Shown: positions 389-16,342 of the stretch, piece by piece
How the letters are laid out: every line of letters starts with the position of its first letter
Position numbering within the stretch: the stretch's first letter is position 1
Assembly (NCBI RefSeq): GCF_019740315.1
Contig: NZ_JAHXZR010000002.1
Coordinates: 1-64,000, forward strand
Direction: 5' to 3'
DNA length: 64,000 nucleotides
Origin: Oceanobacter mangrovi
GTDB lineage: Bacteria; Pseudomonadota; Gammaproteobacteria; Pseudomonadales; Oceanobacteraceae
Translations under genes and position numbers: made by a program
The notes under the pieces: generated by a model
Databases searched by the model: none
What the model was told of the DNA's origin: nothing
The model's input: only the letters and a program-made list of their open reading frames with translations

Positions 389-2008
389 TCAGGAGCGTTG
401 GAGATCACTCCATTTGAGGCTGAATTTGGCGAGATACTTTTGTAGGCGACTGGAATCATTACTGGAGTTCTTGTGCTGACGGCTGACGTCAAACAACTTG
501 CGACCGGCTGCGGCTAACGAACCGGACTGTTGGCAGATCTTCAGAACAGCAGCCAGTTGCAGCTGATCGAACTGGTCGATTTGCTGAATGGCTTGCTGGT
601 CCAGATACTGACCGAGAATCTCCCCGGTCTGTTGTGCTGCATGGTCTTGCCCTGAATCTTTGGCGCCGTTCCAGCTGCGTTGTAGGCGATCTATTTCCAG
701 CTGTACATCGAAAGTAGTGATGCGGGCAGACTCAGCCAGGGTACAGAGGCGAGTCACGGCGGCCCTCAAATCACGGAAGTTACCGCGCCAAAGGCTTTGC
801 GGTGACTGGGCAAAGCTCAGGAACTGATCTCGGGCTTCCTTATTGAAAAGCACCCTGCGACCATTTTTCTGGCTGTACTGTTCCAGTTCAAAGTTCAGGT
901 TGGCAGGAATGTCTTCGGGGCGTTCGTTCAGTGCGGGAAGTTGCCAGTTCCATAAATTAATGCGCGCCAGCAAATCCTCACGAAACAGCCCTTCGCCAAT
1001 GCGTTGCAGCAGGTTGCGGTTGGTGCCAGCAATTAGCTGAAAATCACTGTGCTGTGGTTGATCGCTGCCGACCGGGTAAAAGCTTTTATGCTCTAACGCA
1101 TGCAGCAACATGGCTTGTTCTTCCTGACCAAGTTCGCCAATTTCATCCAGAAACAGTATGCCTCTGTCGGCTCTTTTCAGAAAGCCTTCGCGACTGCTGT
1201 GGGCGCCTGTAAAAGCGCCTCGGGTGTGACCAAACAAGGCGGCCATGGCGTTGTCACCGTGCAGGGTGGCGCAGTTGACGCTGACCAGTTCGCCCTTGAC
1301 CTGCCCCCTGATTTTCTTCAGCTGATAAATACGGGAAGCCAGTTGGGATTTGCCTGCGCCGGTCGGGCCGGTCAACAGAATTGGCTCTGCCGAGCGAATA
1401 GCGACCTTTTCGATTTCGGCAATCATGCGGTTGAAACGGGGGTTAGCGGTATTGATGCCCTGTTTCAGAAAGTCGCTACCTTGCTGGTGTTCGGTTTCAA
1501 AGCGGCTGGCGAGCTGGTCGTAGCGTGAGAGGTCGAGATCAATGGTTTGTACCCGACCAATCGATTTTACCGGGTTACTGGAATCCGGTGAGCTCTGTAT
1601 CAGTTTGCCAGGGAAGTGGCGGCTTTCTGTGAGCAGAAAGCCGCAGATCTGGGCGACGTGTGTGCCGGTGGTGATGTGAAACAGGTAGTCGTTGTTGTCT
1701 GTATCAAAGGTGTGGTTTTGGCACCAGTCAAACAAACCAGCGTAGACCTCTTCAAAATCCCACGGATCGCGGAAGTTGATCTGCTGCGGAATCACTCTGG
1801 TCTCAGGCGAAACGGATTCAATATCAGCACTGATTCGGCCTGCCAGGCGCTCGTAGTCGCTGTCGTGCAGTAGATATAGCTCATCAATTTGCAGATGTGG
1901 CTGGCTGCACAGGGAAATATTTGGTCGCCAGCGAGCCCAGCGATCATTTCTCTTGCCACTGAAGTCGAGTTGGGTGCCCAGAAAACTCAAAACGATGGTC
2001 TTTTTCAT
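389..2008 (-). CDS. rtcR: Sigma-54-dependent transcriptional activator RtcR (N-terminal CARF domain, AAA+ sigma54-interaction domain, C-terminal HTH)
   Basis: Colinear similarity to E. coli RtcR from the N-terminus (VLSFLGTQLDFSGKR...WRPNISLC...SVSPETRVI...NFRDPWDFEEVYAGLFDWC...YLFHITTGTHVAQICGFLL...LIQSSP). Walker A GPTGAGKS and GAFTGA sigma54-contact motif are present. The gene is divergent from rtcB/rtcA. Start chosen at the MKKTIV codon (2006-2008). Confidence 0.85.
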   Translation of the reverse strand: MKKTIVLSFLGTQLDFSGKRNDRWARWRPNISLCSQPHLQIDELYLLHDSDYERLAGRISADIESVSPETRVIPQQINFRDPWDFEEVYAGLFDWCQNHTFDTDNNDYLFHITTGTHVAQICGFLLTESRHFPGKLIQSSPDSSNPVKSIGRVQTIDLDLSRYDQLASRFETEHQQGSDFLKQGINTANPRFNRMIAEIEKVAIRSAEPILLTGPTGAGKSQLASRIYQLKKIRGQVKGELVSVNCATLHGDNAMAALFGHTRGAFTGAHSSREGFLKRADRGILFLDEIGELGQEEQAMLLHALEHKSFYPVGSDQPQHSDFQLIAGTNRNLLQRIGEGLFREDLLARINLWNWQLPALNERPEDIPANLNFELEQYSQKNGRRVLFNKEARDQFLSFAQSPQSLWRGNFRDLRAAVTRLCTLAESARITTFDVQLEIDRLQRSWNGAKDSGQDHAAQQTGEILGQYLDQQAIQQIDQFDQLQLAAVLKICQQSGSLAAAGRKLFDVSRQHKNSSNDSSRLQKYLAKFSLKWSDLQRS

Positions 2009-2164
2009 TCTGTCCTGGATCCTATCCATAAATATAAATACCTATCTTTAAGGATATATCCGGGCTATAGGAAATACTGCCTGTTTTATCCAGAAAATAA
2101 TCCCGATTTAAATAAATATAATAAAAACAATGACTTAAAATTAATTTTCAGGCCATTTCAAAAA

Positions 2165-2180
2165 CTGGCACGCGACTTGG
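2165..2180 (+). promoter_or_regulatory. Candidate sigma-54 (-24/-12) promoter for the leader-SPFH-rtcB-rtcA operon
   Basis: TGGCACGcgacTTGGaa has a perfect -24 element (TGGCACG) and correct spacing, but the -12 element reads TTGG rather than TTGC. It is positioned divergently from rtcR, as expected for an RtcR-dependent promoter. Confidence 0.4.
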
Positions 2181-2191
2181 AATTACAAGGG

Positions 2192-2480
2192 TGTAACTCA
2201 GGGTGTGATTCTGAATCACCCCGGTGCGCCAGGAATACCTTTGCGTATGCCGTTACAAACACATGAATCGGATAGCTCTATGGCTGAGCCCGGTCGAGAG
2301 GCCGGAGGTGCAGGTTCGATCCCTGCTCCGATAACCAGGAAGCTCGACAAAACGCGGGATTCGAGCCCCCGCTCCTGACTAAATACCCAAGCGAAAGAGG
2401 GGGTGCGAAGACAGTCTCTGAGGATGTAACGGGCGTAAGAATAACGAATAACACAGGCCGGATTGCCGCTGTTATTCCGG
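2192..2480 (+). ncRNA. Structured 5' leader / candidate Y-RNA-like (YrlA-like) ncRNA containing a tRNA-like cloverleaf, ending at a hairpin plus pyrimidine-rich tract
   Basis: Positions 2266-2337 fold as a 72-nt cloverleaf. Acceptor ATCGGA/TCCGAT; D-arm GCTC-tatGGct-GAGC with GG in the loop; T-arm GCAGG-TTCGATC-CCTGC with canonical T-loop; 3' tail AACCA. The 'anticodon' arm is non-canonical (CCGG-8 nt loop-CCGG). A second T-arm-like motif (GCGGG-ATTCGAGCC-CCCGC) lies at about 2361-2380. A bulged hairpin AATAACAcAG...CTGTTATT followed by a T/C-rich tract at about 2437-2490 could be the 3' end or an attenuator. Confidence 0.4.
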
Positions 2481-2541: not shown

Positions 2542-3744
2542 ATGAAATTCAAAACAATCCGGAACGTTACCGATAGCCAGCGTGAGCTGGTCTACAAAGA
2601 CCGCCAGCTGGTACAAATCCTGACCGCCGGACGGCATTCATTTTTTGACTGGAAACAGTCCCTGACTTTTCACAGCTTTGATGTGAACGACATTTACCTG
2701 AGTGATCCGGACACCCTTCGCTGGTACGCCCGTTCGAAGCTGCTGCAACAGCATGTTCACTTCTGGCAATTACAGCCTGACCAGCTGGGGCTGCTGTATC
2801 TCGACGGCATGTTGCGTGGCGTCGTGGCACCGGGTGAACAGGTTTATATCTGGAAGGATGTTGGCAAGGTGGAATTGAAAACCATCGACTTTGAACAACA
2901 GTTGCAGCTCGATAACGGTCTGCTACGCGAAATCAATCGGGTGGGGGCCAACCAGTCCAAACGGTTGATTCGCAGCGAAGCTTCGGTGGCGGTGAAGCCG
3001 GTGACTGAATTCACGGTGGCCAGCTGGCATGTGGGTTTGTTGTATCAGGACGGCGAGTTTGTACGGCAGTTGGCGCCGGGACGTTATGGCTTCTGGCAAT
3101 TCAATCATGAGTATGAGGTTCGTCAGTTTGACCTGCGCGCCACCATGCTGGACATCAGTGGTCAGGAGATTCTCAGCAAGGATCGGGTAAGTCTGCGAAT
3201 CAACCTGTCAGCGACGGTGAAAACCATCGACGTCACGCTGTTGGCTGCCAGTGTCGACCAGCCCCATGAGTACATCTACAAACTGCTGCAGTTGGCATTG
3301 CGGGAAGCCGTTGGTACCAAGACCCTGGACGAACTGCTGCTCGACAAACTGTACGTCAACGAGACAGTGCGCGACATCGTGCGTGAGTCGTTGACAGCCA
3401 TCGGTATCGAGCTGGTAGGCGTGGGCGTCAAGGACATCATTTTGCCCGGTGAGATGAAGGCGATCCTGAATCAGGTGGTCGAAGCCCAGAAAGCGGCAGA
3501 AGCCAATGTGATCAAGCGACGGGAAGAAACCGCCGCCACTCGCAGCCTGCACAATACCGCCAAAGTGATGGATAACAACCCGATTTTGCTGCGCCTGAAG
3601 GAACTGGAAGCACTTGAAAAAGTGGCTGAAAAAATCGACAGCCTGACGGTACATAACGGCCTTGATGGCTTGATGAAAGGATTGGTGACGATGCAGCCAG
3701 CTCAAATCGCTGAGGCTCAGAAACAAGGAAAAAACCATGTGTAA
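2542..3744 (+). CDS. SPFH/band-7 (stomatin/prohibitin-like, slipin family) protein, first ORF of the rtc operon
   Basis: 400 aa. The SPFH core is visible (DRVSLRINLSATVKTIDV...; EAQKAAEANVIKRREETAATR coiled-coil tail). An RBS AAAAGGA precedes the ATG. The stop overlaps the rtcB start by 8 nt. Confidence 0.75.
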   Translation: MKFKTIRNVTDSQRELVYKDRQLVQILTAGRHSFFDWKQSLTFHSFDVNDIYLSDPDTLRWYARSKLLQQHVHFWQLQPDQLGLLYLDGMLRGVVAPGEQVYIWKDVGKVELKTIDFEQQLQLDNGLLREINRVGANQSKRLIRSEASVAVKPVTEFTVASWHVGLLYQDGEFVRQLAPGRYGFWQFNHEYEVRQFDLRATMLDISGQEILSKDRVSLRINLSATVKTIDVTLLAASVDQPHEYIYKLLQLALREAVGTKTLDELLLDKLYVNETVRDIVRESLTAIGIELVGVGVKDIILPGEMKAILNQVVEAQKAAEANVIKRREETAATRSLHNTAKVMDNNPILLRLKELEALEKVAEKIDSLTVHNGLDGLMKGLVTMQPAQIAEAQKQGKNHV

Positions 3745-4966
3745 CCACGATAACTATCAAGTGTTCGATCAGCTTGGCCGAGTGCCTGTCAAAGCTTGGG
3801 TTAACGGCGTGCCGTTTGAAAATGAGGCTCGCAAGCAGTTGGCCAACATTGCCAGTATGGATCTGGTGCATTCCCACATAGCGGTGATGCCTGACGTACA
3901 TTTGGGTAAAGGTGCGACCATTGGCAGCGTGATTCCATCGGTCAACGCGGTGATTCCTGCGGCGGTAGGCGTGGACATCGGCTGCGGTATGGTCGCCAAC
4001 AAAACCAGCCTGAAAGCCCGTGACCTGCCTGACAGCCTGAAGGAAATCCGCCACGCTTTCGAAGCGGCTGTACCGCATGGGCGTTCTTCCGGGCGTGGTC
4101 GCCGCGATACCGGTGCCTGGCACGATTTGCCTGAGCTGGTGGTGGCCGGCTGGAGCACGCTGGCGCAGCGTTTTGAGAAAATTTGCAGCAAGCATCCAGC
4201 GATCCGCCAAACCAACAACATCAATCACCTCGGCACCATGGGGACAGGTAATCATTTCCTGGAGCTGTGCCTGGATACGGAGGGTAGTGTTTGGCTGATG
4301 TTGCACTCTGGCAGTCGTGGGGTGGGTAACCGTATTGGCACCTACTTCATTGAACTGGCCCGTAAGGAAATGGAGCGCCACCAGATTCAGCTGCCGGACA
4401 TGGATCTGGCCTATCTTGAAGAAGGCAGTGAGTATTTTGATGACTACGTGGAAGCGGTGGAGTGGGCTCAGGATTACGCTGCTATCAACCGCGACATCAT
4501 GATGAAAAATGCCATTGCTGCCTTGCAGAAAGTTCTGGGACGGCCGTTCGAGAGCGCGAAATTAGCGGTGAATTGTCACCATAACTACGTTTCGCGTGAG
4601 CACCACTTTGGCAAGGATTGCTACGTTACCCGCAAGGGTGCGGTGCGCGCGCAGCAAGGTGAAATGGGGATTATTCCGGGCAGCATGGGAGCACGATCCT
4701 ACATCGTTCGAGGGTTGGGCAATCCGCAAAGCTTCAACAGTTGCAGTCACGGAGCCGGGCGTGTGATGTCACGCACCAAAGCCAAAAAGGTCTACTCAAT
4801 TGCCGATCAGGAGGCTGCAACCGCCGGAGTCGAGTGCCGCAAGGACGAAGGCATGATTGATGAAATCCCGCATGCCTACAAGGACATCGACAAGGTGATG
4901 GCAGCCCAGCAGGATCTGGTCGAGGTGGTCCATACCCTGAAACAAATTGTCTGCGTGAAAGGGTAA
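3737..4966 (+). CDS. rtcB: RNA-splicing ligase RtcB (3'-phosphate/5'-OH RNA ligase)
   Basis: Near-identical motifs to E. coli RtcB: HIAVMPDVHLGKGATIGSVIP...AAVGVDIGCGM, HSGSRGVGN, NCHHNY. Confidence 0.9.
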   Translation: MCNHDNYQVFDQLGRVPVKAWVNGVPFENEARKQLANIASMDLVHSHIAVMPDVHLGKGATIGSVIPSVNAVIPAAVGVDIGCGMVANKTSLKARDLPDSLKEIRHAFEAAVPHGRSSGRGRRDTGAWHDLPELVVAGWSTLAQRFEKICSKHPAIRQTNNINHLGTMGTGNHFLELCLDTEGSVWLMLHSGSRGVGNRIGTYFIELARKEMERHQIQLPDMDLAYLEEGSEYFDDYVEAVEWAQDYAAINRDIMMKNAIAALQKVLGRPFESAKLAVNCHHNYVSREHHFGKDCYVTRKGAVRAQQGEMGIIPGSMGARSYIVRGLGNPQSFNSCSHGAGRVMSRTKAKKVYSIADQEAATAGVECRKDEGMIDEIPHAYKDIDKVMAAQQDLVEVVHTLKQIVCVKG

Positions 4967-4972
4967 GGAACG

Positions 4973-6004
4973 ATGGTTGTGACATCTTCATGGATGCAGG
5001 TGGACGGTGCCATGGGCGAGGGCGGTGGTCAGGTGCTGCGCACCTCGCTGACGTTGGCGTTGTTGCAGCAGCGGCCACTGCGGATAACCAACATTCGTGC
5101 CGGTCGCAGCAAACCCGGCTTGATGCGTCAGCATCTGGCCTGTGCTCGCGCAGCAGCAGCTATTTGTGCTGGTACGCTGCGGGGGGATGAGCCGGGCTCG
5201 GACTGGCTTGAGTTTGAACCTGCGCCAGTCAAGGGCGGGCTTTACGAATTCGCCATCAGTACCGCAGGCAGCACGGCGCTGGTCTGCCAGACCGTACTGC
5301 TGCCACTGGTACTGGCGTCGGAGCCGTCGACGGCTGAGTTTCGGGGTGGTACTCACAATGGCTTGTCGCCGTCAGTGGATTTTCTGCGGCAATCGTTTTT
5401 GCCGTTGCTGCAAACGATGGGGGTAACCACCCGGTTAAGCCTGCATCGACATGGCTTCATGCCCGCGGGTGGCGGTCATTGGACATTGGAAATCGTGCCC
5501 GTGCAGCAGCTTGTGCCCCTGCAACTGGAGCACGTAGTTCCAGCCGTTGCTGACCCGGTCGCTGTTGTTTGTCAGAATCAGTTACCGCGCAACATTGCCG
5601 AGCGTCAGCTGACCGAGCTGAAGCGCCGGTTGGGAATGGATCTGGTCACAACCGTGGAATTTGTCGATGCCCTCGGTGCTGGCAATATGCTGGCGCTTGA
5701 AGTGGCTTTGCCGGAATTTGTCCAACGCTTTGAACTGCCTGCCGCAATGGGCAGTAGTGCAGAAAAGATCGCCCGCAGGCTGGCCGGGTTTTATCGAAAA
5801 TGGCAGCACAGCAATGTCGCGGTGGACGAATATCTGGCCGACCAACTGTTGTTACCAATTGCATTGGCCGGTGCCGGTCGCTTTACCACCACGGCACCGA
5901 GCCTGCATACCCGTACCAATATCGAGCTGATCGAACAGCTGACTGGCCAACGTTTCCAACAGCAGCAACTCGATGCATCGCGCTGGCTGGTGTCATTGTG
6001 CTGA
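4973..6004 (+). CDS. rtcA: RNA 3'-terminal phosphate cyclase RtcA
   Basis: The N-terminal DGAMGEGGGQVLRTSLTLALL motif is typical of RtcA. Length 343 aa. It lies immediately downstream of rtcB. Confidence 0.85.
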   Translation: MVVTSSWMQVDGAMGEGGGQVLRTSLTLALLQQRPLRITNIRAGRSKPGLMRQHLACARAAAAICAGTLRGDEPGSDWLEFEPAPVKGGLYEFAISTAGSTALVCQTVLLPLVLASEPSTAEFRGGTHNGLSPSVDFLRQSFLPLLQTMGVTTRLSLHRHGFMPAGGGHWTLEIVPVQQLVPLQLEHVVPAVADPVAVVCQNQLPRNIAERQLTELKRRLGMDLVTTVEFVDALGAGNMLALEVALPEFVQRFELPAAMGSSAEKIARRLAGFYRKWQHSNVAVDEYLADQLLLPIALAGAGRFTTTAPSLHTRTNIELIEQLTGQRFQQQQLDASRWLVSLC

Positions 6005-6013
6005 TCACCCGGC

Positions 6014-8092
6014 TTATGCCGGGCTTTCCATCGGATGAATTACTCTTACTACTGGCAGGATTGTTGCCATGTCCAATAACTGAGTGACACACCAGACGGC
6101 ACGCAGCGAATCGAGCGGTGCGGCGGATTGCAGCAGCCGGGCCAGGGCTTTCAGGCCCATATCCTCGCAGCGCCGCGCCAGTTCGGCATGGGCGGCGGCG
6201 CCCGGTGGCTGGTCGGCGAGCTGATCGAGGCAATGAATCAGCAGCTGTTGCAGACGGCTGGTTTGCCCGTTTTGGGTTGGCTGGCTGTTGAGTTTGGCCA
6301 GCCAGCAGCTGAAGCGGGTGGGCCGGTAGCGGTTTTCCAGCGTATCGAAGTAGAGGTTGAACCAGAGAGCAGGTTTTTTCTCGCCTGCTGGCGCTGTGGT
6401 CTGTTCCTGGGTCTCTTGCTCTTTATTCTGAGCTGAGGGCTCCTTGCCCTGAGCTGAAGGCTCTTTGTCCTGCGCTGAGGGCTCTGAATAGCGACTTTTC
6501 GGTGGTTTCGGCAGAACGCTGGCTGGCAGCCGTAGGGTACAGGGCGTCAGCCGCACGCGTACATGGTTGCGCTCAATGCGGGCGACGATTAGTTCCGGCA
6601 AATGCTGTTCCAGCGCCATCAGGTTGATGATTGCCTGTTTTGTCAGGGGGGAGCTGGTCAGCTCAAACCCCAGCATATGGCCGTCTCGATCGGCGTACTG
6701 CACGGTCAGGGTCTGGCTGGCTTCATCAAATTGAGTGCTGTGGCAGGCACTGGGCCGGAAGCAGAGGAATTCTGCCTGCCAGTCGATCTCATCGACATGA
6801 TCAATGCTGACCGGCTCGGCCGGCGCTAATGGCTGATCGGAATTCACAGAGGCGGGCGGTTGGGCATAAACCCGGGTGGCCTGCATCCGTCGCAGCCGGT
6901 TCCAGCCGTTCAGCTCGGCATTGTCGAGGGCCATGATTTTGCCCATCCAGGCCATGCCGGACGGCGCACCGTCGAGCCAGCCGCCGCTTTGCCAGGTCTG
7001 CTCAAAGCTCAGCGCCGGGCTGGCACTGGCCCGGCTCTCGGCCAGCGTCACAAACTGTCCTTGCGGGTCTTGCAGAATCAGGGTGACGCCATGGGCACCG
7101 CTGTCGTTGCGCCATGGATAGCCGCCCAGTCCGAACAGCTGTTGCGGAGCCTGTTGCAGCGGCTTGAGTTGCTCCGGCTGGACCTGCTCCAGACTGACCA
7201 GCAGTTTGGCCATGCTGACCAGAATGGCGCTGCGATCACGAATCCCCCGACCGCTGACGTAACGCTCCAGCCCGCTGAGCAGCTGCTTCAGCGCGGCGCT
7301 GTTCATGCCCAGCCGCTGCATCGGCATCTCCATGGCTTCCAGTTCCAGCAAGGCGGTAGGGCGCAGCTGGTCGATGCCCTGCATCAGCATGTGTTGCAGA
7401 TGATGGCGAATCCGCTCGCCCAGCCACTGTTGTGATTGTTGGCTGATGCCGGCCTGTTGCTGCTGTTCTGCGCCAAGCCAGTCCGGCCATTCAAACCTGA
7501 GCTGTTGCTGCTGGCAGTACAGCCACACCGCCAGCAAGCGCATCGGCTCGCTTTGTGAGTGACAGATCAGATCATCCAGACCGCGCGCCTGGCGAAAGTG
7601 AATCTCATCCTGATGGATCTGTACCCGCACCATGCCAGAGTCGTTTTGAGTCTCGATGCTGTAGGCCCAGCGTTTTTGGCTTTGCTTCCATAACTGGCGG
7701 ACCTTCGCCTTGCCCGCAGATTTCAGCAGGGCGGGGATATCGAGGTCAGGTGCCCAGGGTTGGCAGCCAGCTTTTTGGACTTCAGCGTCTGACGTCTGAC
7801 GTCCGACGTCCGACCCTTGCCCTTCAGTATCCGGCGTCAGACCTCCAGCGTCAGACGTCTGATTTAAGGTCTCCGCCACATACAAACAGACGGCGATGAT
7901 GTGTTTGCACAGTCCGGAGGCGGCGCAGTCGCACTGGCTGAGGTTGGGGTTGTCGCGGTTGAACTGGCCGTGCTGGCCTTCAAATTCAAAGCGGTCGCCA
8001 TCCGCCAGAATCGGGCTGGCCTTGTCCAGTGCCTTGCGGGCGCGGCGCACCAGTCCGGGGCTGCTGAGGCTGGCGAGCAAATCGTCGTTCAT
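6014..8092 (-). CDS. SWIM zinc-finger domain protein (YehQ-like), last gene of the yeh-like cluster
   Basis: N-terminal CDCAASGLCKHIIAVCLY has the SWIM CxC...CxH signature. 692 aa. Its start overlaps the stop of the upstream VWA gene (ATGA at 8089-8092). Contains internal peptide repeats (KEPSAQx)3. Confidence 0.7.
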   Translation of the reverse strand: MNDDLLASLSSPGLVRRARKALDKASPILADGDRFEFEGQHGQFNRDNPNLSQCDCAASGLCKHIIAVCLYVAETLNQTSDAGGLTPDTEGQGSDVGRQTSDAEVQKAGCQPWAPDLDIPALLKSAGKAKVRQLWKQSQKRWAYSIETQNDSGMVRVQIHQDEIHFRQARGLDDLICHSQSEPMRLLAVWLYCQQQQLRFEWPDWLGAEQQQQAGISQQSQQWLGERIRHHLQHMLMQGIDQLRPTALLELEAMEMPMQRLGMNSAALKQLLSGLERYVSGRGIRDRSAILVSMAKLLVSLEQVQPEQLKPLQQAPQQLFGLGGYPWRNDSGAHGVTLILQDPQGQFVTLAESRASASPALSFEQTWQSGGWLDGAPSGMAWMGKIMALDNAELNGWNRLRRMQATRVYAQPPASVNSDQPLAPAEPVSIDHVDEIDWQAEFLCFRPSACHSTQFDEASQTLTVQYADRDGHMLGFELTSSPLTKQAIINLMALEQHLPELIVARIERNHVRVRLTPCTLRLPASVLPKPPKSRYSEPSAQDKEPSAQGKEPSAQNKEQETQEQTTAPAGEKKPALWFNLYFDTLENRYRPTRFSCWLAKLNSQPTQNGQTSRLQQLLIHCLDQLADQPPGAAAHAELARRCEDMGLKALARLLQSAAPLDSLRAVWCVTQLLDMATILPVVRVIHPMESPA

Positions 8093-9198
8093 TTTCTGAA
8101 TCCCATAACACGCGCCAGCCAGTCGGCAAACTGGTCCGGGCTGAGGGCGTTGATGTCCATGCCCAGTTGTTGCAGCTGGCTGGTGGACTGGCTGTTGTAA
8201 AAGGGCGTCGAGTCGCTGGTCATGGCGGTCATGCCGAGCATTTTGATGCCGCTGTCGACCATTTGCGCGGCCTGGCCGAGCATGCCTTGCAGCGGGCCAC
8301 CTTCACAGAAGTCGGAGACGGTGGCGACCACGGTTCTCTGAGGGGCGCTGACCAGTTGCTCGCAGTATTGCCAGGCCTGACCGATCAGGGTGCCGCCACC
8401 GAGCTGGGTGCGCAGCATCACGCTGACCGGATCGTCGGCGTGTTCGCTGAGGTCGACCACCCGGGTATCGAACACCACCAGAGACAGTTTCACGGTGGGC
8501 AGGCGGGTCAGAATCCCGGCAATCACCGCCGAATAGATCATCGACTCGGCCATCGAACCGGATTGGTCGATGCACAGAATCACTCGCCACGGCAGGCTGG
8601 TTTGCTGGCGGGCGTTGAAGTACACCCGCTCGTAGCGCAGCCGTTCGCCGTCGAAGTTTTTCAGGTTTTTGCGAATGGTGGTTTGCCAGTCGAGGTTGGC
8701 CAGCCGTTTGACCGGACTGTGGGCTTGCCGGTTGAGACGGCCGGTCAGGCAGTGGCTAAACACCGGCATCAGCTTGCGCAGCAGCTCCTCGACCACGCCA
8801 CGGATAATCCGCTCGACCTGGTCCCTCAGGGCCGGGTTGTGGTGGGCGTTGAGTTTCATCAGCTGTTTGAGCAGGTCGACGCTGGGGGTGATCTTGTCGA
8901 GCACACCGGGCTGCTTGAGCACATCGGTAAGGCCGTAGTGATCCACCGCGTCCTGTTGCAGCTTGTCGTTGACGCTGCGCGGAAACAGCTTTTCGGCCTG
9001 TTCAAGCCATTGGATGATCTGCGGCTCGCCGCTCTCCAGACCGCCCGACAAATCAAAACCGCGTTCCACCAGACCTTGCTGATAAAGGGTTTGCAGGACC
9101 TGATCCTGACCTTGCTGTTGCGAGCTGAGGTTGGCGTTGAGGTCGTCGGCGTAGCGGCCCAGTACCAGCCGCCAGCGTTGTTTCAGTAGCTCAGCCAT
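8089..9198 (-). CDS. von Willebrand factor A (VWA) domain protein (YehP-like)
   Basis: MIDAS motif in ILCIDQSGSM. Start is probably the internal MAELLKQRW codon (about 9198), since the longest ORF overlaps the upstream gene by about 110 nt. This is the classic partner of a MoxR AAA+ ATPase. Confidence 0.75.
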   Translation of the reverse strand: MAELLKQRWRLVLGRYADDLNANLSSQQQGQDQVLQTLYQQGLVERGFDLSGGLESGEPQIIQWLEQAEKLFPRSVNDKLQQDAVDHYGLTDVLKQPGVLDKITPSVDLLKQLMKLNAHHNPALRDQVERIIRGVVEELLRKLMPVFSHCLTGRLNRQAHSPVKRLANLDWQTTIRKNLKNFDGERLRYERVYFNARQQTSLPWRVILCIDQSGSMAESMIYSAVIAGILTRLPTVKLSLVVFDTRVVDLSEHADDPVSVMLRTQLGGGTLIGQAWQYCEQLVSAPQRTVVATVSDFCEGGPLQGMLGQAAQMVDSGIKMLGMTAMTSDSTPFYNSQSTSQLQQLGMDINALSPDQFADWLARVMGFRK

Positions 9199-11483
9199 GC
9201 GTTCAGTCCTAGCTGGTCGAGGCGTTGTTGCAGTTGCTGTTCGAGCACCATGCCCTGTTCGACGTCTTGCTCGGAGAGGCCTTTTTTCAGCCATTCGAGC
9301 GGGTCGTCCCAGTCGTTGAGGGTACGCAGCTGGCGGGTAATGCCGTCGATCTCGCGGGCGTCCATGCGGCTGAACAGTTTGCGCAGGGCAGGCAGCTGCT
9401 CGGTGAAGTGGTCGTCATCCAGTTGTTCCAGCCAGTGGTTGAGCAACTCCAGCAGCCCGGACGACTGGCGCAACCAGTGTGGCACCACGGTGATGAGGGC
9501 TTCGAGGATGGCATAACGCTCACTGAAGCCCTGACTGTGAACCTGTTGCAGCAGCGCGCTGGCGTCACCGTCGGTCAGTTCCACTTCCAGCGCTTGCAGG
9601 GCAAACCACATCGGCAGCCGGTGGCGGTTGTGGCAGATCAGCCAGTGCAGGCGGTCTTGCCAGGGCTGGTGCAGTTCGTCCTCGTGCTGGCGGGCGATGC
9701 CTTGCAGGGCAACCAGCAGTTCCAGTGCTTCGTCCATATCGAGCTGGTTAAGTGCCGCCAGATGAAAGCCCAGTTGCTGCCACAGTGCCCGGTACAGCTT
9801 ATCCAGCGGCTGGTCGGCAAACAGCGGATGGCGCGACAGCTGGAAGATTTGCATAAAGCTCTGCGACAGCGTCTGGATGTCGGTGCAGTCGTGAATTTGC
9901 TGATACAGGGGTTGCTGCGGCAGATGCTGCTGCAGACCCATTTGCATGGCCTGTTGCAGCAGAGTCACGCTCTGGCCCAGGCTCTGCTGGGGCCGATTCA
10001 GCAGCTGGATGATGATGAGGCGTTCCAGCGTGCTGCCGTTACGGCCCAGTTTGGCCAGCCGTACTTCCACCGATGGCGTCCACTGATAGCTCCAGGATTC
10101 GCGTTTCTTGCTGGCGCTAAAGCTGTAGAAACTGCCTGGTCCACCTGAAGGGGAGGCAAATCCGGCTTCGACAAAGGCCAGCCGACACAGCAGCTGGCGG
10201 CGTTTGGCGGCGGATTCGTTCATATCCAGCAGATCAAAATGGCACTGGCCAGCGGGGCCGACTTTCAGGCGGCTTGCACGGACCTGTTGCAGAACTTCAT
10301 CGACCAGCGGCAGGCCGGGCAGACCTTCCGGCAGCTCGCCAATGGCATCGCCGCGCAGAATCTGTTGCCAGGGCTCCAGCGCATCGGCGGTGAATTGCTG
10401 TTTGACCAGACAGCTGGTCAGCGAGTCGAGCAGATCATTGCTGCCGGGGCGGTCGAGCTGGCGCAGCACGCACAGCTGTTGCAGGTGGTGGATAACGTTC
10501 TGGCGCTGCACCAGAGTCAGGCCGAGTTGCTTGAGCAGAAACAGTATCCATTCTTCGGCATCGCTCTGTTTCTTCTTCAGCCGGTCGGCCAGTTGCCAGC
10601 GACTGAAGGCAGGCCAGGGCATACCGGCGGCGTAGCCGGAGGCCGGATGCAGCAGCTCGTCGCTGTAGCGTACCAGCACCGCAGCCTGACGCGGGGCGGC
10701 GGCATCGGTCTGGTCCAGCGCACTGGCCGGAATCGGCGCGCTTTCGCTTGAAAAGTCGAACAGCGCCGGGGTATGGAAGCCGCCGGTCAGCACCGCGATG
10801 CGCTCAACCTGCTGGCGGGCGTCGCGAATATGAGCGCGCATGCACTGTTCGCGGGGCAGGTCACCAAGCTGTTGCAGGGACTCGTCATCGTGACAGGCAC
10901 GGCTGGCGGCGCAGTACAGCATGACCTGCAAAAAGAAGTCGTCGGCGCTGGCAAAGTCGCGGCATTCAAACAGCCGTTGCCAGACTTCGTCCTGCGAGCG
11001 GCAGCCCAGTTTCTGTTGCAGCTGGCGGGTGTATTCGGAGCCGAGCAGCCGGCTGTCGCTCCAGCGATTGCCGCCTTCATCACTGTCGCCCTCGTTGCTG
11101 TCTACCTCGTTACTGTTATTGGGGGCGCGGTCTGGCTGGTCGAGGTCGATAAACCAGACCGGCACCTGATGAGCGGCGGCCCAGCGAATGGCCTGCCACT
11201 CCGGGCTGTTTTCGGCCATCGGGTAGTAGCTCTGGTGCTGATACAGCGCCAGTGGTGGCCGCACCTCGTCGCCTTGCAGCAAGGGCAGCTGGTCGACAAA
11301 GGCCATCGGCGCTTCGATCAGTACCATTTGCGGTTGCTGGCGGTCGAGCTGCTCGATGGTCATGGCGGCACAGGCCGGGCTGTGATGGCGTACCGGCAGC
11401 CAGCTCAGGCCGTCGTCACGCAAAAACGCTGCCCGGCAGTCGACCAGGTACTGGCCAATATCCGGTTCGGCTATTTCATCCAC
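9183..11483 (-). CDS. Large conserved hypothetical protein (YehM-like, DUF5682-type)
   Basis: 766 aa. Sits between the AAA+ and VWA genes with start/stop overlaps on both sides. Size and position match E. coli YehM. Contains an acidic low-complexity insert (NSNEVDSNEGDSDEGG). Confidence 0.55.
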   Translation of the reverse strand: MDEIAEPDIGQYLVDCRAAFLRDDGLSWLPVRHHSPACAAMTIEQLDRQQPQMVLIEAPMAFVDQLPLLQGDEVRPPLALYQHQSYYPMAENSPEWQAIRWAAAHQVPVWFIDLDQPDRAPNNSNEVDSNEGDSDEGGNRWSDSRLLGSEYTRQLQQKLGCRSQDEVWQRLFECRDFASADDFFLQVMLYCAASRACHDDESLQQLGDLPREQCMRAHIRDARQQVERIAVLTGGFHTPALFDFSSESAPIPASALDQTDAAAPRQAAVLVRYSDELLHPASGYAAGMPWPAFSRWQLADRLKKKQSDAEEWILFLLKQLGLTLVQRQNVIHHLQQLCVLRQLDRPGSNDLLDSLTSCLVKQQFTADALEPWQQILRGDAIGELPEGLPGLPLVDEVLQQVRASRLKVGPAGQCHFDLLDMNESAAKRRQLLCRLAFVEAGFASPSGGPGSFYSFSASKKRESWSYQWTPSVEVRLAKLGRNGSTLERLIIIQLLNRPQQSLGQSVTLLQQAMQMGLQQHLPQQPLYQQIHDCTDIQTLSQSFMQIFQLSRHPLFADQPLDKLYRALWQQLGFHLAALNQLDMDEALELLVALQGIARQHEDELHQPWQDRLHWLICHNRHRLPMWFALQALEVELTDGDASALLQQVHSQGFSERYAILEALITVVPHWLRQSSGLLELLNHWLEQLDDDHFTEQLPALRKLFSRMDAREIDGITRQLRTLNDWDDPLEWLKKGLSEQDVEQGMVLEQQLQQRLDQLGLNAWLSY

Positions 11484-12523
11484 AGTGCTTTACCTGCCGT
11501 GAAGAATTCTTTCCAGCTGGAACGCTCACGCACCACCACATCCAGATAGTGGGCCAGCTTCTTGATGTCGTCCGGTTTGTCCTTGATCAGGGTGCCGTGC
11601 ATTTGCTGGACCAGCTGGGCGGTGTTCATCGGCTGCTGCCAGTACAGGCTGTGGAGGGCGCAGGCATGGACGATGTTCACTGCTTCGGCAGTGGACAGCG
11701 TGGCTTCCAGCGCTTGTGGGCCGGTACTGTGGCGCAGCTCGTGGAACACCTGCACCAGCAGTTCGACCAGATCGGCGTCGAGCGGGTGTTCTGTGCCACT
11801 GTCGGCCAGCCGCTGCTGCACCTGGCTCATGATCAGGGTTTTCTCCATGGCTGCATCGTTAATCACCGGCACGGTTTCGAAATTGAAGCGGCGCTTGAGG
11901 GCGCTGGACATGTCGTTAACACCACGGTCGAGCAGGTTGGCGGTGGCGATGACGTTAAAGCCGGGTTTGGCCTGAATCGCAATGCCCAGTTCGGGAATGG
12001 TGAGGGTTTTCTCCGACATCACTGAAATCAGTACGTCCTGGATTTCCTGCGGACAGCGGGTGATTTCTTCCAGGCGCACCAGCTTGCCCTGTTCCATGGC
12101 CTCGTACACCGGGCTTTTCAGTAAGGCTTCCAGGCTCGGCCCGCCGGACAGTAGCAGGGCGAAGTTCCAGCTGTATTTGATCTGTTCTTCAGTGGTACCG
12201 GCGGTGCCCTGAATCAGCAATTCGCTATGGCCGCTAATGGCAGCGGTCAGCAGTTCCGACAGCATGGATTTGGCGGTGCCTGGTTCACCGACCAGCATCA
12301 AACCGTTGTTGCCCATCAGGCTGACAATAGCGCGCTCAACCAGCGCGTCGTCACCATAGTATTTGCGACTGATGCCATGCACGGCATCGCCGCAGATAAA
12401 GCGGCGCACCGCAGCGGCTGACAGCGCCCAGCCCGGCGGCCGCGGGCTGCTGTCGTGTTCGCGGAGGGTGTCCAGTTCCTGTTGGTAGCGCTGTTCGGCG
12501 CGTTCTCGAATGACGTTTACCAC
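11471..12523 (-). CDS. MoxR-family AAA+ ATPase (YehL-like, AAA_5)
   Basis: Walker A GEPGTAKS, Walker B and sensor region, 350 aa. Start overlaps the stop of the upstream giant gene (12517-12523). Confidence 0.85.
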   Translation of the reverse strand: MVNVIRERAEQRYQQELDTLREHDSSPRPPGWALSAAAVRRFICGDAVHGISRKYYGDDALVERAIVSLMGNNGLMLVGEPGTAKSMLSELLTAAISGHSELLIQGTAGTTEEQIKYSWNFALLLSGGPSLEALLKSPVYEAMEQGKLVRLEEITRCPQEIQDVLISVMSEKTLTIPELGIAIQAKPGFNVIATANLLDRGVNDMSSALKRRFNFETVPVINDAAMEKTLIMSQVQQRLADSGTEHPLDADLVELLVQVFHELRHSTGPQALEATLSTAEAVNIVHACALHSLYWQQPMNTAQLVQQMHGTLIKDKPDDIKKLAHYLDVVVRERSSWKEFFTAGKALWMK

Positions 12524-15500
12524 GGCAGTTTTTTCTCCCAGTCCGGATCAGCAGTGGCTTTGGCGGCCACCGCTTCGTAGTCGAGTGCAATGGCATTGAG
12601 CAGGTTGGCGGGCAGCTCGGCCAGCGGGATGTAATCATCTTCCTGGTGCCAGTAACTGCGGTTCGACAGTTTTACCACCTGCATGCTGTAGATGGCGGCG
12701 CTGACTTGCTCTTCCGGCAGGCAGTTACCACTAAAGGTAAAAATCACCTTGAGGCCAAAGCGGTCGAAGGTTTTGGTGTACTCGCCGAACCAGCCAGCGT
12801 CTTCAGCCTGGCCGCGCTCGTAACCGGCTTTGGTCATTACGCCGCGCACGGTAAAGGCATCGGTCAGATAGCCATGGTAATGATCGATTTTACGCTGGCC
12901 CTGCTTGAAGGCGATTTGCGCTGATCTGAGCTGATCGAACAGCGGTGTGACCTTGTAGTCCTTGAGGTGCTGTTGCCAGGCCTTGATGTCTGCCATATCG
13001 GCTTCAGCCAGTGCTACGGCGCTGAGCAGTCGGATGCGGCTGTTGTAAGGGATGCTGACTTCGTCGTCATCGAGGTTGATGAATTCGTCCTCTTCGGTGG
13101 GGCGGAAGCTGACCCATTCGCCGTCGATCTCTACTTGCCACAGCAAACGTTGTAACAGACGGTTCATCACCGGGTGCTGATGCAGGTATTGCAGCCAGTC
13201 GCCGCTGTGCCATTCGCGGTCGGTGATCATGGCGTCGTACAGTCGGGCCTGTTGTTGCTCGACCACTTGCTTGAGTTCTTTCTTGCTGTTGCTGAACCAC
13301 TTTTTGGTGTCGCTGATGGCTTCCTTGTCGTCGTCCTGACGAGGCTGTGGCAGGGCTTTGATGAGCTTGCCATCAGTGCTGAGTAGTTGCAGTTTCAAGC
13401 TGTCGTCGAGCTGGATGCTGAGGGTGCGACTGCCGTATTCAAATTCGGTCGGGCCGTGCAGCTGTTCCAGACCGGCGGTCTGAATCGTGCGGTCGGCCAG
13501 CTCGTCAGCACTCCAGTCATTGCGGGTCGCGATATTGTCGATCAGTTGACGAGCCAGACTCTGTACTGAGGCGGTGCGGTAGCGGCGGGCAATACCGAGC
13601 ACAAACTGGATCATGACAGGGTCATCACTGTCGCCCACCGCCGCCAGCATGGCTTCGATTTGTGAGCGGCGCTTGTAATGCTCTTTCATGAATGGCCGAA
13701 TCAGCCCCAGCAGTTGCTGGCTGTCACCGCGTTTGGTCAGTGCCAGCAGGCCTTTTTCCTTGATGGCTGAACCGAACAACTGCACCTTGCGATTGCGATA
13801 CAGCTCGCGGTAGGCGTCGTCGGTGGTTTTGTTGGCATACTCGGCTCCCCAGCTGGATTTGGCCCATTGCTGATAGCGGCTGTAAAGCGCAGATTTGCCT
13901 TGCTCGGCGTGTTCGTGAGCCTCTTCATCGGTTGGGCAGCGGGTGTCCTGGTCGATAAAGCTGGATAGCAGGAAGTGTGCGAGGCGCTGATTACTGTTGT
14001 TGTCAAGCAAGGTCAGATAGCTGTCCAGCAGCGCGTTACCTTCCGGTTGTTTGAGTTTGACCGCCAGTACTATCCACCAGAACAACAGCGGTTCCGGTAC
14101 CGCGCTGCCGTCGCTAAAGGTCACTGCCGGCAGTTGCTCGCGCGGGAACCAGTCCATCGATTTTGGTGGTGCCTTGCGCAGACCGGCATTGGCTTCTTTT
14201 TCCAGCAGCTTCAGAGTCAGAAACTCGCTGATGTCATAACCACTGCGTTGCAGGGCATCGATGATCAGTGCTTGGGTCGGTGCGTCTTTTTCTTTTTGCA
14301 AGGCTTGCAGCAAGGCTGGTTGTGATTCCTCAAGGCCGAGGCGGCCAAGCCACTGGATGATGTCTGCACGCAGGGCTTTTTCACGACTTGCAAGCATTTC
14401 TAACACTCGTGAGAGGTCGATGCCGAGAGCCTCAACGGTACGGAACGCTTGCTGGCGTACATAACGGGATTCATGCAGGCAAAGGTCATAGAGGGCGTTA
14501 CTCCAGCGGGCTGGCAGCTGTGGAAAATACTGCAGCAAGCGCAGGCTGCTCATGATGATGTCGTTGCTGTCCAGATGGCCTGTAGCGGTATATTGGCCTT
14601 TGAGGCCATCATCAATCAGCGATTCATGCTCTGCCAGATACGGCCATATTTTCAGCTCGAGCAAGTATTCCGGTATGTCGCCATTGCTGGCAAATAACAG
14701 TGTTTCGATGGATTGCGATTCAACGACTTCTTCGGCGGCAATGGCCATCAGTTGGCGAAAGTCGCTCAGTTCATTCACCAGTCGGGCAAAGTACGGCTGA
14801 TGGCGTAAAAATCCCCAGGAGAGAGTGTGTGTGCCCAGAAAACGAAACAGGTGGCGGAGGTTGGTATCCGGTTGCTGGATAAGATTGGCGTTTCTGAAGA
14901 TGGTGTCCAGTTGCGGGTTGGCTGGCCGAGCTTCTGCATTGGCCAGACAGTCAATCACCTGTTGCAGGTCGGCATCGGTAATTGAACGCAGTTTGACCAG
15001 TGACTGTTTGGCCTTTTCAAGATATTGGACTTCGTATGGACGAGGGCTCTCAGACTGCTCGAGATAACGCTGCTGGTTTTCAATACTGGATTCGGTGTAA
15101 CGAATGCGCTGCTGGCGGGACTGCTGCAGCAGTCCGAACCAGTGGGCCGGAATCTCCTTGCTGATTTCAATCGGGCTGGCCGCAGGAATCTGCCATTCAA
15201 ACGGCGTGTCATCATCGGGCTGCTGGTGATTGGCCAACCGCTGCAGGGCTTCCAGTGCTTTGGGAGCAGTTTCTGTTTCAAGCCATTGTTCTAACAGTGG
15301 TTTGCAATCCGGGTGTTCTGCGGCGGCGGCGACCCAGTGTAGCCGGGTGGATGCTTTGGCTTTGGGATATTGTTGTTGCAGGTACTCGACCAGCGGTTGC
15401 CCCGGTAGTCGGTGGATTTCCAGTAGGGTGGCCTGACGCACACCTTTGGCGCTGTCGGCCGCCAGTTTTAGCAAGGGCTCAATAAATGCTTCGGAATTGG

Positions 15501-16176
15501 TGGTCTGGTCAGTTTGCAGTTGTTTGCCTAACAGGCGTGCCAGTGTGGCACGGGCACTGACGTGCAGATCTTGCAGCGCTTGCAGCCAGTCCGGGTCGCA
15601 GGCAAGGGTCAGCCAGTCGGTGGTGTTTTGAAGACGCTGATGTAATTTGCAGTAATTTAAATAGTAGCTGTAGGTATTTTCCAGCAGCCAGGTATCCAGC
15701 AACATCGGGTCTTGCTGGTATTCCTGCAGGGTAGACACCAGTACCTCACGGTCGATGGCATCGTAATGGCCCGCCAACAGAGCCAGCATTTTGAGAGCCC
15801 AGCCATCCGGGCGGTTGTTCATATGACGGGAGTAACGATAGTCGTAGTACCTACCTGCGTGCATTACCCGCCCCAAACGCACCCATATAGCTGGTTGAGC
15901 TCCGCTTTCGGAGGCGAGAAATTCTTTCAGGGCTTGCTCGACCTTGCTGTGCTGTTTGGTCAACTCATCCGGGAAACCGCCACGACTGCTGCCGGGGTAG
16001 AGGGATTGATTATGGCTGGCCAGATCATCCAAAGCCGTTGCCGGTGAGCCGGTCAGAATGTAGCTGGCAATGGCCTGGCCAAGTCCGGTGTGAAAATACT
16101 CGATGGCGGTGCAGGCAGTGTTGAGCAGGGTAATACTTTCTTGTTGGCTGGGCGCTGGAGTCAGGGTAGCTGACAT
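12517..16176 (-). CDS. Giant DUF4132-family protein (YehI/MolR-like), first gene of the cluster
   Basis: About 1219 aa from the internal start MSATLTPAP (16174-16176). That start has an AAGGAT RBS. The longest ORF (to 16392) would run through the REP-like element. Size and position match E. coli YehI (1210 aa). Confidence 0.6.
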   Translation of the reverse strand: MSATLTPAPSQQESITLLNTACTAIEYFHTGLGQAIASYILTGSPATALDDLASHNQSLYPGSSRGGFPDELTKQHSKVEQALKEFLASESGAQPAIWVRLGRVMHAGRYYDYRYSRHMNNRPDGWALKMLALLAGHYDAIDREVLVSTLQEYQQDPMLLDTWLLENTYSYYLNYCKLHQRLQNTTDWLTLACDPDWLQALQDLHVSARATLARLLGKQLQTDQTTNSEAFIEPLLKLAADSAKGVRQATLLEIHRLPGQPLVEYLQQQYPKAKASTRLHWVAAAAEHPDCKPLLEQWLETETAPKALEALQRLANHQQPDDDTPFEWQIPAASPIEISKEIPAHWFGLLQQSRQQRIRYTESSIENQQRYLEQSESPRPYEVQYLEKAKQSLVKLRSITDADLQQVIDCLANAEARPANPQLDTIFRNANLIQQPDTNLRHLFRFLGTHTLSWGFLRHQPYFARLVNELSDFRQLMAIAAEEVVESQSIETLLFASNGDIPEYLLELKIWPYLAEHESLIDDGLKGQYTATGHLDSNDIIMSSLRLLQYFPQLPARWSNALYDLCLHESRYVRQQAFRTVEALGIDLSRVLEMLASREKALRADIIQWLGRLGLEESQPALLQALQKEKDAPTQALIIDALQRSGYDISEFLTLKLLEKEANAGLRKAPPKSMDWFPREQLPAVTFSDGSAVPEPLLFWWIVLAVKLKQPEGNALLDSYLTLLDNNSNQRLAHFLLSSFIDQDTRCPTDEEAHEHAEQGKSALYSRYQQWAKSSWGAEYANKTTDDAYRELYRNRKVQLFGSAIKEKGLLALTKRGDSQQLLGLIRPFMKEHYKRRSQIEAMLAAVGDSDDPVMIQFVLGIARRYRTASVQSLARQLIDNIATRNDWSADELADRTIQTAGLEQLHGPTEFEYGSRTLSIQLDDSLKLQLLSTDGKLIKALPQPRQDDDKEAISDTKKWFSNSKKELKQVVEQQQARLYDAMITDREWHSGDWLQYLHQHPVMNRLLQRLLWQVEIDGEWVSFRPTEEDEFINLDDDEVSIPYNSRIRLLSAVALAEADMADIKAWQQHLKDYKVTPLFDQLRSAQIAFKQGQRKIDHYHGYLTDAFTVRGVMTKAGYERGQAEDAGWFGEYTKTFDRFGLKVIFTFSGNCLPEEQVSAAIYSMQVVKLSNRSYWHQEDDYIPLAELPANLLNAIALDYEAVAAKATADPDWEKKLPW

Positions 16177-16247
16177 GATGAATCCTTGAACGATGAAAAT
16201 GGCAAGGTGGCGACTGTGATCAGTGGCTGTTGATGAAGAACCTAGGC

Positions 16248-16334
16248 TGCTGTCCCGACATATCATGCCCCTACGCAAGACGTGTAAATTCGCTTGCGTA
16301 GGGGAAAGGCATACCTTGTCGGTAGCCTTGCCAG
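16248..16334. repeat. REP-like triple-hairpin intergenic element, copy A (inverted relative to copies B and C)
   Basis: The reverse complement aligns with copy B: CTGGCAAGGC...CCCCTACGCAAG-loop-CTTGCGTAGGGG...GTCCCGACATaTC. Intergenic, between the Coq4-like stop and the yehI-like start. Confidence 0.6.
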
Positions 16335-16342
16335 ACGCTGGC

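Follow-up and report, generated by a model that had tools for sequence, protein, structure and literature searches.

A family of tRNA-like genes named b7a-tRNA, short for band-7-associated tRNA, has been described beside genes for Band-7 proteins and the RNA ligase RtcB. The discussion section of bioRxiv preprint 10.1101/312249, which cites Burroughs and Aravind 2016 (Nucleic Acids Res 2016;44:8525), presents the family as predicted and not validated, and our literature search found no later study of b7a-tRNA after the 2016 prediction. The first 64,000 nucleotides of contig NZ_JAHXZR010000002.1 from Oceanobacter mangrovi (the whole of this stretch is the window below) contain a 72-nucleotide tRNA-like cloverleaf at 2266-2337 on the plus strand, upstream of a Band-7 (SPFH) gene and the RNA-repair genes rtcB and rtcA. 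The element is very probably a divergent member of the b7a-tRNA family, an assignment based on its tRNA-like fold and score, the Band-7 gene next door, the association with RtcB, and homologues whose changes preserve the structure. It shares the Band-7/RtcB context of b7a-tRNA. In contrast, the window copy is a divergent single unit: a GNRA tetraloop caps its anticodon arm, A opposes A at 1:72, and CCA is encoded. A probable degenerate minihelix comes after it instead of further full units, and no recorded protein exceeds 62% identity to its SPFH partner.

ARAGORN calls one gene only in the 64-kb window, 2266-2337 (+), as 'tRNA-???' with a 2-nucleotide 'anticodon'. This is exactly the span of the cloverleaf that a preliminary description of this DNA had proposed. 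The Rfam tRNA model (RF00005) matches 2266-2334 with 34.3 bits against a gathering score of 29, and the E-value is 0.0021 for the whole window and 2.3e-5 for 2000-2700. The minimum-energy RNA fold of 2266-2337 is the cloverleaf, which accounts for 63% of the ensemble. Taken by itself, the 72-mer has an unremarkable thermodynamic z-score (-1.77). The case for a structure beyond chance is built on the covariance-model scores and the conservation across loci.

The acceptor stem (2266-2272/2327-2333) comprises six Watson-Crick pairs and the A.A at 1:72. The D arm (2275-2289) consists of GCUC/GAGC with GG within the loop, the T arm (2310-2326) reads GCAGG-UUCGAUC-CCUGC, and the 3' end is A-CCA, with the discriminator A at 2334 and the encoded CCA at 2335-2337; these parts agree with the preliminary description. 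The variable region between the anticodon-position arm and the T arm is AGGU. The nucleotides of the tertiary interactions (U8, A14, G18G19, T54-psi55-C56, and A58) are kept in UAGCUC..GG..GAGC and GGUUCGAUCC according to the Rfam and family alignments. The anticodon-position arm (2290-2305), previously taken as a 4-bp stem with an 8-nucleotide loop, is better read as a 6-bp CCGGUC/GGCCGG stem with one G.U pair and a GAGA tetraloop of the GNRA type as its cap. A canonical 7-nucleotide anticodon loop with U33 and a purine at 37 was not found in the element, the four-nucleotide GAGA loop being present in its place. Because of this arm the element is unable to decode, and it is a non-decoding tRNA mimic, as had been suggested. 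Neither ARAGORN nor Rfam gives a transfer-messenger RNA (tmRNA) call for the element in the window. The above-threshold Rfam score and the encoded CCA would also suit a functional decoding tRNA that ARAGORN simply leaves unclassified, but the GAGA loop on a 6-bp stem, the A.A at 1:72, and family loops of 3-9 nucleotides with no consistent anticodon leave this explanation a negligible probability.

The family was studied in 47 loci with an SPFH protein, one genome per species, from Alteromonadales, Vibrionales, Oceanospirillales-like metagenome-assembled genomes (MAGs), Lysobacterales, Myxococcota, and Planctomycetota. In 42 of the 47, ARAGORN and the family covariance model (R1) detect between one and three tRNA-like genes approximately 0.2-1.1 kb upstream of the SPFH gene and in its orientation. 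Two of the five remaining loci have a T arm only, and one of the other three has no sequence upstream of the match. All SPFH-adjacent hits are on the same strand and 5' of the SPFH gene. Saccharophagus degradans (L049) and Microbulbifer celer (L051) served as independent test loci outside the model, and both contain an aberrant 'tRNA-???' about 400-490 nucleotides upstream of the SPFH gene.

An alignment of 51 sequences folds as a cloverleaf, and 18 of its 21 pairs have changes on both sides; the compensatory changes that the preliminary description had named as a check on orthologous leaders are thus present, in homologues at the same position. The proportion of paired cells in the cloverleaf is 91.2%, compared with 70.1% in shuffled and 37-48% in slid controls. 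The covariation score is 0.578 versus 0.186 for shuffled alignments, and none of 500 shuffles reaches 0.578. The acceptor and anticodon stems of the family covary, and the D- and T-loop nucleotides of the tertiary interactions, together with U8 and A14, are invariant or nearly so. No consistent anticodon is found among 61 family copies. Their minimum-energy folds have an anticodon-position loop of 7 nucleotides in 24 copies, 3-6 nucleotides in 32, and 8-9 nucleotides in 5, and a GNRA tetraloop occurs at this position in the window copy and a few others. The replacement of the anticodon loop by a tetraloop in the window copy argues that the selected feature is the L-shaped tRNA body, with its elbow and acceptor end, and not decoding. 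CCA follows the discriminator in 8 of the 61 copies, against about 1/64 expected by chance, and 'AC' is common there. Tandem tRNA-like units abut or overlap by about 4 nucleotides.

The gene order in O. mangrovi is a divergent rtcR followed, on the other strand, by SPFH-rtcB-rtcA. L001-L026 and L046 share this order, and the Alteromonas-type arrangement is a divergent rtcR and then tRNA-like unit(s)-SPFH-rtcB-rtcA. In L027, L028, and both test loci, the tRNA-like unit is located between rtcB (or rtcA remnants) and the SPFH gene. Many loci of Lysobacterales, Planctomycetota, and related MAGs have no Rtc gene within about 4 kb. In six of the loci (L030, L031, L034, L036, L044, and L045), a scan of the neighbours places the tRNA-like and SPFH pair amid unrelated metabolic genes, and no match to RtcB, RtcA, or RtcR was obtained within about 4 kb. 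The E. coli rtcR-rtcB spacer, which is 188 nucleotides long and contains no SPFH gene, has a sigma54 promoter and no tRNA-like element (best score 3.7 bits); moreover, the window leader has no match by DNA similarity in E. coli genomes. Since the pairing holds without Rtc genes nearby and the element is absent from the SPFH-less E. coli spacer, the conserved and mobile unit is the tRNA-like RNA plus SPFH, and the Rtc operon is one frequent host of it. In Pseudomonas aeruginosa, the SPFH gene PA4582/PaFlo8 sits in the rtc locus (PMC13086221); among the 120 proteins listed as homologous to the L027 SPFH protein, it does not occur.

This distribution bears on two further explanations. The first, raised in the preliminary description, is a functionless decayed tRNA gene or integration scar left by a mobile element, and it can point to the aberrant anticodon loop and to an ISL3 transposase fragment at 116-361. 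However, that fragment lies on the far side of rtcR, and the element has all four arms intact and stands between two other conserved RNA structures. It is complete, and its syntenic position is occupied in 42 of the 47 loci and in both test loci, over several phyla and with compensatory changes; a scar is therefore rejected as hardly credible. The second is an uncleavable tRNA decoy, induced along with the repair enzymes, that would occupy tRNA-targeting toxins (anticodon nucleases, for example) in competition with cellular tRNAs and would itself resist them through its replaced loop. The conserved tRNA body with variable or deleted anticodon loops, the GNRA tetraloop in the window, and the presence of up to three copies as the first part of the transcript are in line with a decoy. 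On the other hand, most anticodon nucleases recognise the anticodon loop, which the window element lacks, and a handful of leader copies would have to hold their own against the very large pool of tRNAs. A decoy also leaves unexplained why SPFH is the obligatory partner even in loci with no nearby Rtc genes, and such a function appears quite unlikely.

YrlA: The bacterial Y RNA YrlA, which Ro60/Rsr binds, is another tRNA mimic found in RNA-repair operons, and the preliminary description had compared the window element to it. In Salmonella it belongs to rsr-yrlBA-rtcBA (PMC4201824, PMC7790460). YrlA has a circularly permuted tRNA-like domain composed of the T arm, a closed acceptor, and the D arm, together with a Ro-binding stem carrying the motif GNCGAAN0-1G (PMC4201824). 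The Mycobacterium smegmatis YrlA, with a 7-bp acceptor, is cleaved by RNase P and receives CCA (PMC4201824). The window element resembles YrlA as a tRNA mimic that keeps conserved D- and T-arm tertiary nucleotides and has lost anticodon function. Both also have their genes in RNA-repair operons under RtcR control, next to the gene of a putative scaffold protein. In contrast, YrlA ends in the Ro-binding stem, has a loop-closed acceptor, and works with Ro60, whereas the window element ends in an acceptor stem.

A YrlA-type Y RNA working with Ro60 would fit the occurrence of a tRNA mimic within an rtcBA operon, a situation known from Salmonella, and relatives of the window element do give sub-threshold YrlA matches at tandem-unit junctions; in L009 these are 33 and 32 bits at 3645-3706 and 3718-3774, with a gathering score of 69. 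The window element, however, fails on four defining features. The YrlA (RF02553) and Y_RNA models match nothing in 2000-2700 at E<=10, and nowhere in the whole window do they reach the gathering score. No Ro60/TROVE gene was found with Pfam among the operon neighbours or in 18 of the 22 window open reading frames (ORFs) of at least 380 amino acids, the other four lying at 31-59 kb, and the GNCGAAN0-1G motif is absent from 2185-2545. The order of the arms is acceptor-D-anticodon-T-acceptor with the two ends paired as the acceptor stem, and thus is not permuted. Membership of the YrlA or Y-RNA-like family, which the preliminary description had favoured, is accordingly highly improbable. The two families may nevertheless be related. 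Neighbouring tandem units have near-identical acceptor stems, so that a YrlA-type permuted domain can form from a unit's T arm, the acceptor strands, and the D arm of the unit that follows. The unit junctions may thus connect b7a-tRNA arrays with YrlA in evolution.

Other mimics: Partial tRNA mimics that bind a tRNA-recognising protein include the E. coli thrS operator, located in a 5' leader, and the tRNA-like domain of tmRNA. The thrS operator mimics only the anticodon arm, whereas the window element keeps the whole L-shape minus the anticodon loop. In tmRNA, which is aminoacylated, the parts imitated are the acceptor and T arm; in contrast, ARAGORN shows no tmRNA features in the window element.

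Operon and promoter: The element was first placed in an rtcR-rtcB intergenic region, but the region is in fact rtcR-SPFH, since a 400-amino-acid Band_7 ('slipin') gene at 2542-3744 (+; Pfam Band_7, 7.3e-26) precedes rtcB and had been overlooked. The divergent rtcR (389-2029, minus strand) encodes a CARF-type RtcR domain (Pfam RtcR, 1.2e-77) and a sigma54-activator AAA+ domain (Sigma54_activat, 6.2e-46). Downstream of SPFH are rtcB (3737-4966, +; Pfam RtcB, 4.5e-130), which encodes the RNA ligase, and rtcA (4973-6004, +; Pfam RTC, 3.9e-75), which encodes the RNA 3'-phosphate cyclase. RtcB is identical to WP_221794481.1 of Oceanobacter mangrovi, and an exact RtcA match is recorded under the cluster name RNA 3'-terminal phosphate cyclase [Oceanobacter mangrovi]. 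The exact window SPFH sequence is absent from the same protein collection. The rtcB ATG lies 8 nucleotides inside the end of the SPFH ORF (3737-3744), and this overlap suggests translational coupling of SPFH and RtcB.

A sigma54-type sequence, TGGCACGCGACTTGGAAT, with a -24 GG and a -12 element, lies at 2166-2183 (+). It fits the consensus TGGCAC-N5-TTG-N-WAT derived from an alignment of 28 related leaders, and is the sole consensus match within the window; the corresponding position of E. coli rtcBA has TGGCACGACGGTTGCAAT. From the sequence we infer that 2166-2183 functions as a promoter for RtcR/sigma54-driven transcription. The 3' end of the tRNA-like element is 204 nucleotides from the Band_7 ORF on the same strand, and neither a sigma70-like promoter nor a plus-strand terminator was found in 1950-2650. 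Given the single sigma54 site and no sigma70 promoter or terminator before SPFH, the element most likely lies in the 5' leader of the transcript that depends on RtcR and is co-transcribed with SPFH. Its location in the leader of a sigma54/RtcR-controlled transcript, as originally described, is therefore retained.

Leader structures: The tRNA-like unit is one module in a leader of about 330 nucleotides, which comprises a 5' three-way module, the unit itself, a degenerate minihelix, and a hairpin with GGA at its apex. The 5' module (2192-2257, +) is about 65 nucleotides long and sited between the promoter and the tRNA-like unit. A closing stem UGUAAC/GUUACA surrounds two hairpins, GGGUGUGAUUC..AUCACCCC and GGUGCGC..GCGUAUGCC, in the minimum-energy fold (z=-2.48). 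The blocks GUGAUUC, UCAC, GGUGCGC, and GCGUAUNCC hardly vary among 19 gammaproteobacterial rtcR-SPFH leaders (alignment A6).

The second T-arm-like hairpin reported in the preliminary description is present; its position, however, is 2353-2372 and not 2361-2380, and by itself it scores 2.2 bits with the family model (E=2.3), which is not significant. For this reason it was dropped as an independent tRNA-like gene. In the minimum-energy fold, a 5-bp stem CAGGA/UCCUG (2336-2340/2373-2377) closes this hairpin into a minihelix at 2336-2377 (+), which overlaps the CCA of the first unit. The minihelix is a probable degenerate second tRNA-like unit, for which the evidence in the window copy is weak. 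L027, L028, L029, and L035 have a second T-loop motif about 45 nucleotides past the first, as part of an intact mini-tRNA that lacks a D arm and carries a GNRA hairpin. In three of these, the short GNRA-capped hairpin followed by a perfect T arm spans 3707-3750 (L027), 3679-3725 (L028), and 85-130 (L029), and similar D-armless units occur at other spacings in L031, L032, and L044.

A long imperfect hairpin of about 120 nucleotides (2399-2520, +; minimum-energy fold in context) lies between the tRNA-like unit and the SPFH start. Its apex (2446-2477) is GAAUAACA-CA-GGC-CGGAUU-GCC-GC-UGUUAUUC, with GGA in the loop. All gammaproteobacterial relatives have a homologous hairpin of about 125 nucleotides with the apex ..CA-AGC-NGGAN-GCU-CC.., and the GGA of the apical loop is constant, in AGC-AGGAU-GCU in relatives and GGC-CGGAUU-GCC in the window. 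Compensatory changes affect 22 of 26 pairs, and the apex is 84% paired compared with 30-48% in slid controls. A long hairpin whose apical loop holds GGA is likewise present in the distant loci inspected (L027, L028, and L031). The robust part of the window hairpin is the apical 2431-2490, and the lower stem has an alternative pairing. A pairing of AAGAGGGGGUGCGAAGA with UCUUCGCCCCUUCUUC, which came from a chance mir-207 alignment and from the fold of 2395-2498 alone, was rejected; the 2399-2520 pairing is preferred because it is the minimum-energy fold with more context and its length is like that of the relatives' hairpin, and 2431-2490 is common to both folds. Rfam has no match to the flanking leader structures. 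The GGA-apex hairpin resembles a CsrA/RsmA-type GGA hairpin or a Shine-Dalgarno mimic. Altered RsmA levels have been reported in a P. aeruginosa delta-rtcB strain (PMC8619066).

The composition of this leader invites a purely cis-acting explanation. The tRNA fold would recruit RNase P and 3'-processing enzymes that trim and stabilise the SPFH-rtcBA mRNA, or it would take part in translational control together with the GGA-apex hairpin, and any excised RNA would be functionless. The element is always 5' of SPFH on the same strand, with a long hairpin before the start codon and no promoter or terminator of its own. The 7-position acceptor, the encoded A-CCA, and the enrichment of CCA in the family agree with processing, and the Shine-Dalgarno-like or CsrA-like GGA loop kept at the apex agrees with translational control. 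In contrast, one to three complete L-shaped units with all tertiary nucleotides over several phyla are more than a processing signal needs, and the abutting or 4-nucleotide overlap of tandem units is ill-suited to clean excision of each. A cis-only role also gives no account of why the element tracks SPFH over other first genes of rtc operons, and overall we regard it as unlikely.

SPFH partner: The AlphaFold2 model of the 400-amino-acid protein has a mean predicted local distance difference test score of 78.5, and consists of two N-terminal beta repeats, the SPFH domain, and a long helix. The beta repeats echo the first strands of the protein's own SPFH domain, and no transmembrane helix was seen on inspection of the model. 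In Foldseek searches, stomatin, HflK/C, and prohibitin, which form cages or rings, match the SPFH-helix part, whereas the alignment with major vault protein (MVP; 9bw6_A and 4v60_A) extends end to end along about 490 columns (E 1.6e-9, TMq 0.39-0.40). The predicted structure agrees with a soluble oligomeric scaffold. The modelled layout is like that of MVP in its beta repeats, SPFH-like shoulder, and long helix, and a small structured RNA is genetically tied to this SPFH-fold protein. In contrast, the window protein has two repeats and MVP nine, vault RNAs (vRNAs) are not tRNA-shaped, and the likeness is at the fold level only (template modelling (TM) score about 0.4, 13-15% identity). Cage formation and RNA binding by the window SPFH are hypothetical.

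Possible mechanism: RNA damage activates RtcR, as established for the Salmonella operon (PMC7790460), and the same is expected in O. mangrovi. The sigma54 promoter at 2166-2183 would then fire, and the leader would fold while it emerges, into the predicted structures that covariation supports. The key part would be the tRNA body with its acceptor stem, D/T-loop elbow, and encoded CCA. The anticodon end would be dispensable, as indicated by the 3-9 nucleotide variation across the family and the GNRA tetraloop in the window. The vault-like SPFH, product of the next gene, might bind this tRNA-shaped body, a step suggested by the strict genomic coupling. An RNA-repair particle could use the RNA as a stable cofactor or scaffold, in analogy with the Y RNA of Ro60 or the vault RNA of MVP; alternatively, the RNA could be a tRNA-mimicking operator within the SPFH mRNA. 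Recognition by tRNA-processing enzymes may also be involved, for which the M. smegmatis YrlA is a precedent. That the tRNA-shaped body is an RNA ligand of an SPFH assembly, as cofactor or operator, is given close to an even chance on the genomic evidence. A broader proposal, which we consider doubtful, is that the leader of about 330 nucleotides and a soluble vault-like SPFH cage would together form a bacterial RNA-repair ribonucleoprotein (RNP), a prokaryotic counterpart of Ro/Y-RNA or vault/vRNA, with YrlA related to tandem b7a arrays through circular permutation at the junctions. The tRNA-like unit would then be a domain of this composite non-coding leader and no RNA in its own right.

Several points weigh against the SPFH-ligand proposal and the family assignment. 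The 50.7 bits that R1 gives the window element are inflated, as the window sequence is in the training set. R1 also scores genuine tRNA-Met and tRNA-Tyr genes in the loci at 31-60 bits without separation, and family membership therefore rests on context. The best relative of the window SPFH is 62% identical, and thus the window variant has no within-genus comparison. The SPFH model has a predicted TM score (pTM) of 0.57, with the vault match at about 0.4, and it is the gene neighbourhood that points to SPFH binding. The strictly fixed order of RNA, hairpin, and SPFH would be just as expected of a leader that acts purely in cis.

For bacterial RtcB/RtcA repair, few substrates and accessory factors have been described so far. 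An RNA with the shape of a tRNA, genetically tied over several phyla to a putative cage-type SPFH protein, points to a putative uncharacterised RNP in the RtcB/RtcA pathway. The b7a-tRNA family was predicted a decade ago and apparently never tested, and the window locus adds a divergent member to it. An Acinetobacter baumannii tigecycline transcriptome paper that includes rtcB (PMC7652931) does not deal with any tRNA-like leader. The conserved structures on either side of the element and the tRNA-like/SPFH module that stands alone may be new observations, and they offer concrete handles for experiment. Such elements should be annotated neither as tRNA genes nor as pseudogenes.

Additional genes were observed around these loci. 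The S. degradans test locus contains a tRNA-Asn(GUU)-like gene of 61.6 bits at 593-668 (+), about 60 nucleotides upstream of rtcB, and a downstream gene at 6023-6673 with a weak match to the bacterial RNase A domain. In the window, the ISL3-family fragment on the plus strand past the 3' end of rtcR is the C-terminal part of a transposase and the sole mobile-element trace seen near the locus. On the other side, convergent with rtcA, a minus-strand cluster at 6014-16392 encodes a SWIM-finger protein, a vWA (CoxE-like) protein, a DUF5682 protein, a MoxR-type AAA_5 ATPase, and a 1291-amino-acid DUF4132/HEAT protein, and looks like a MoxR-vWA system.

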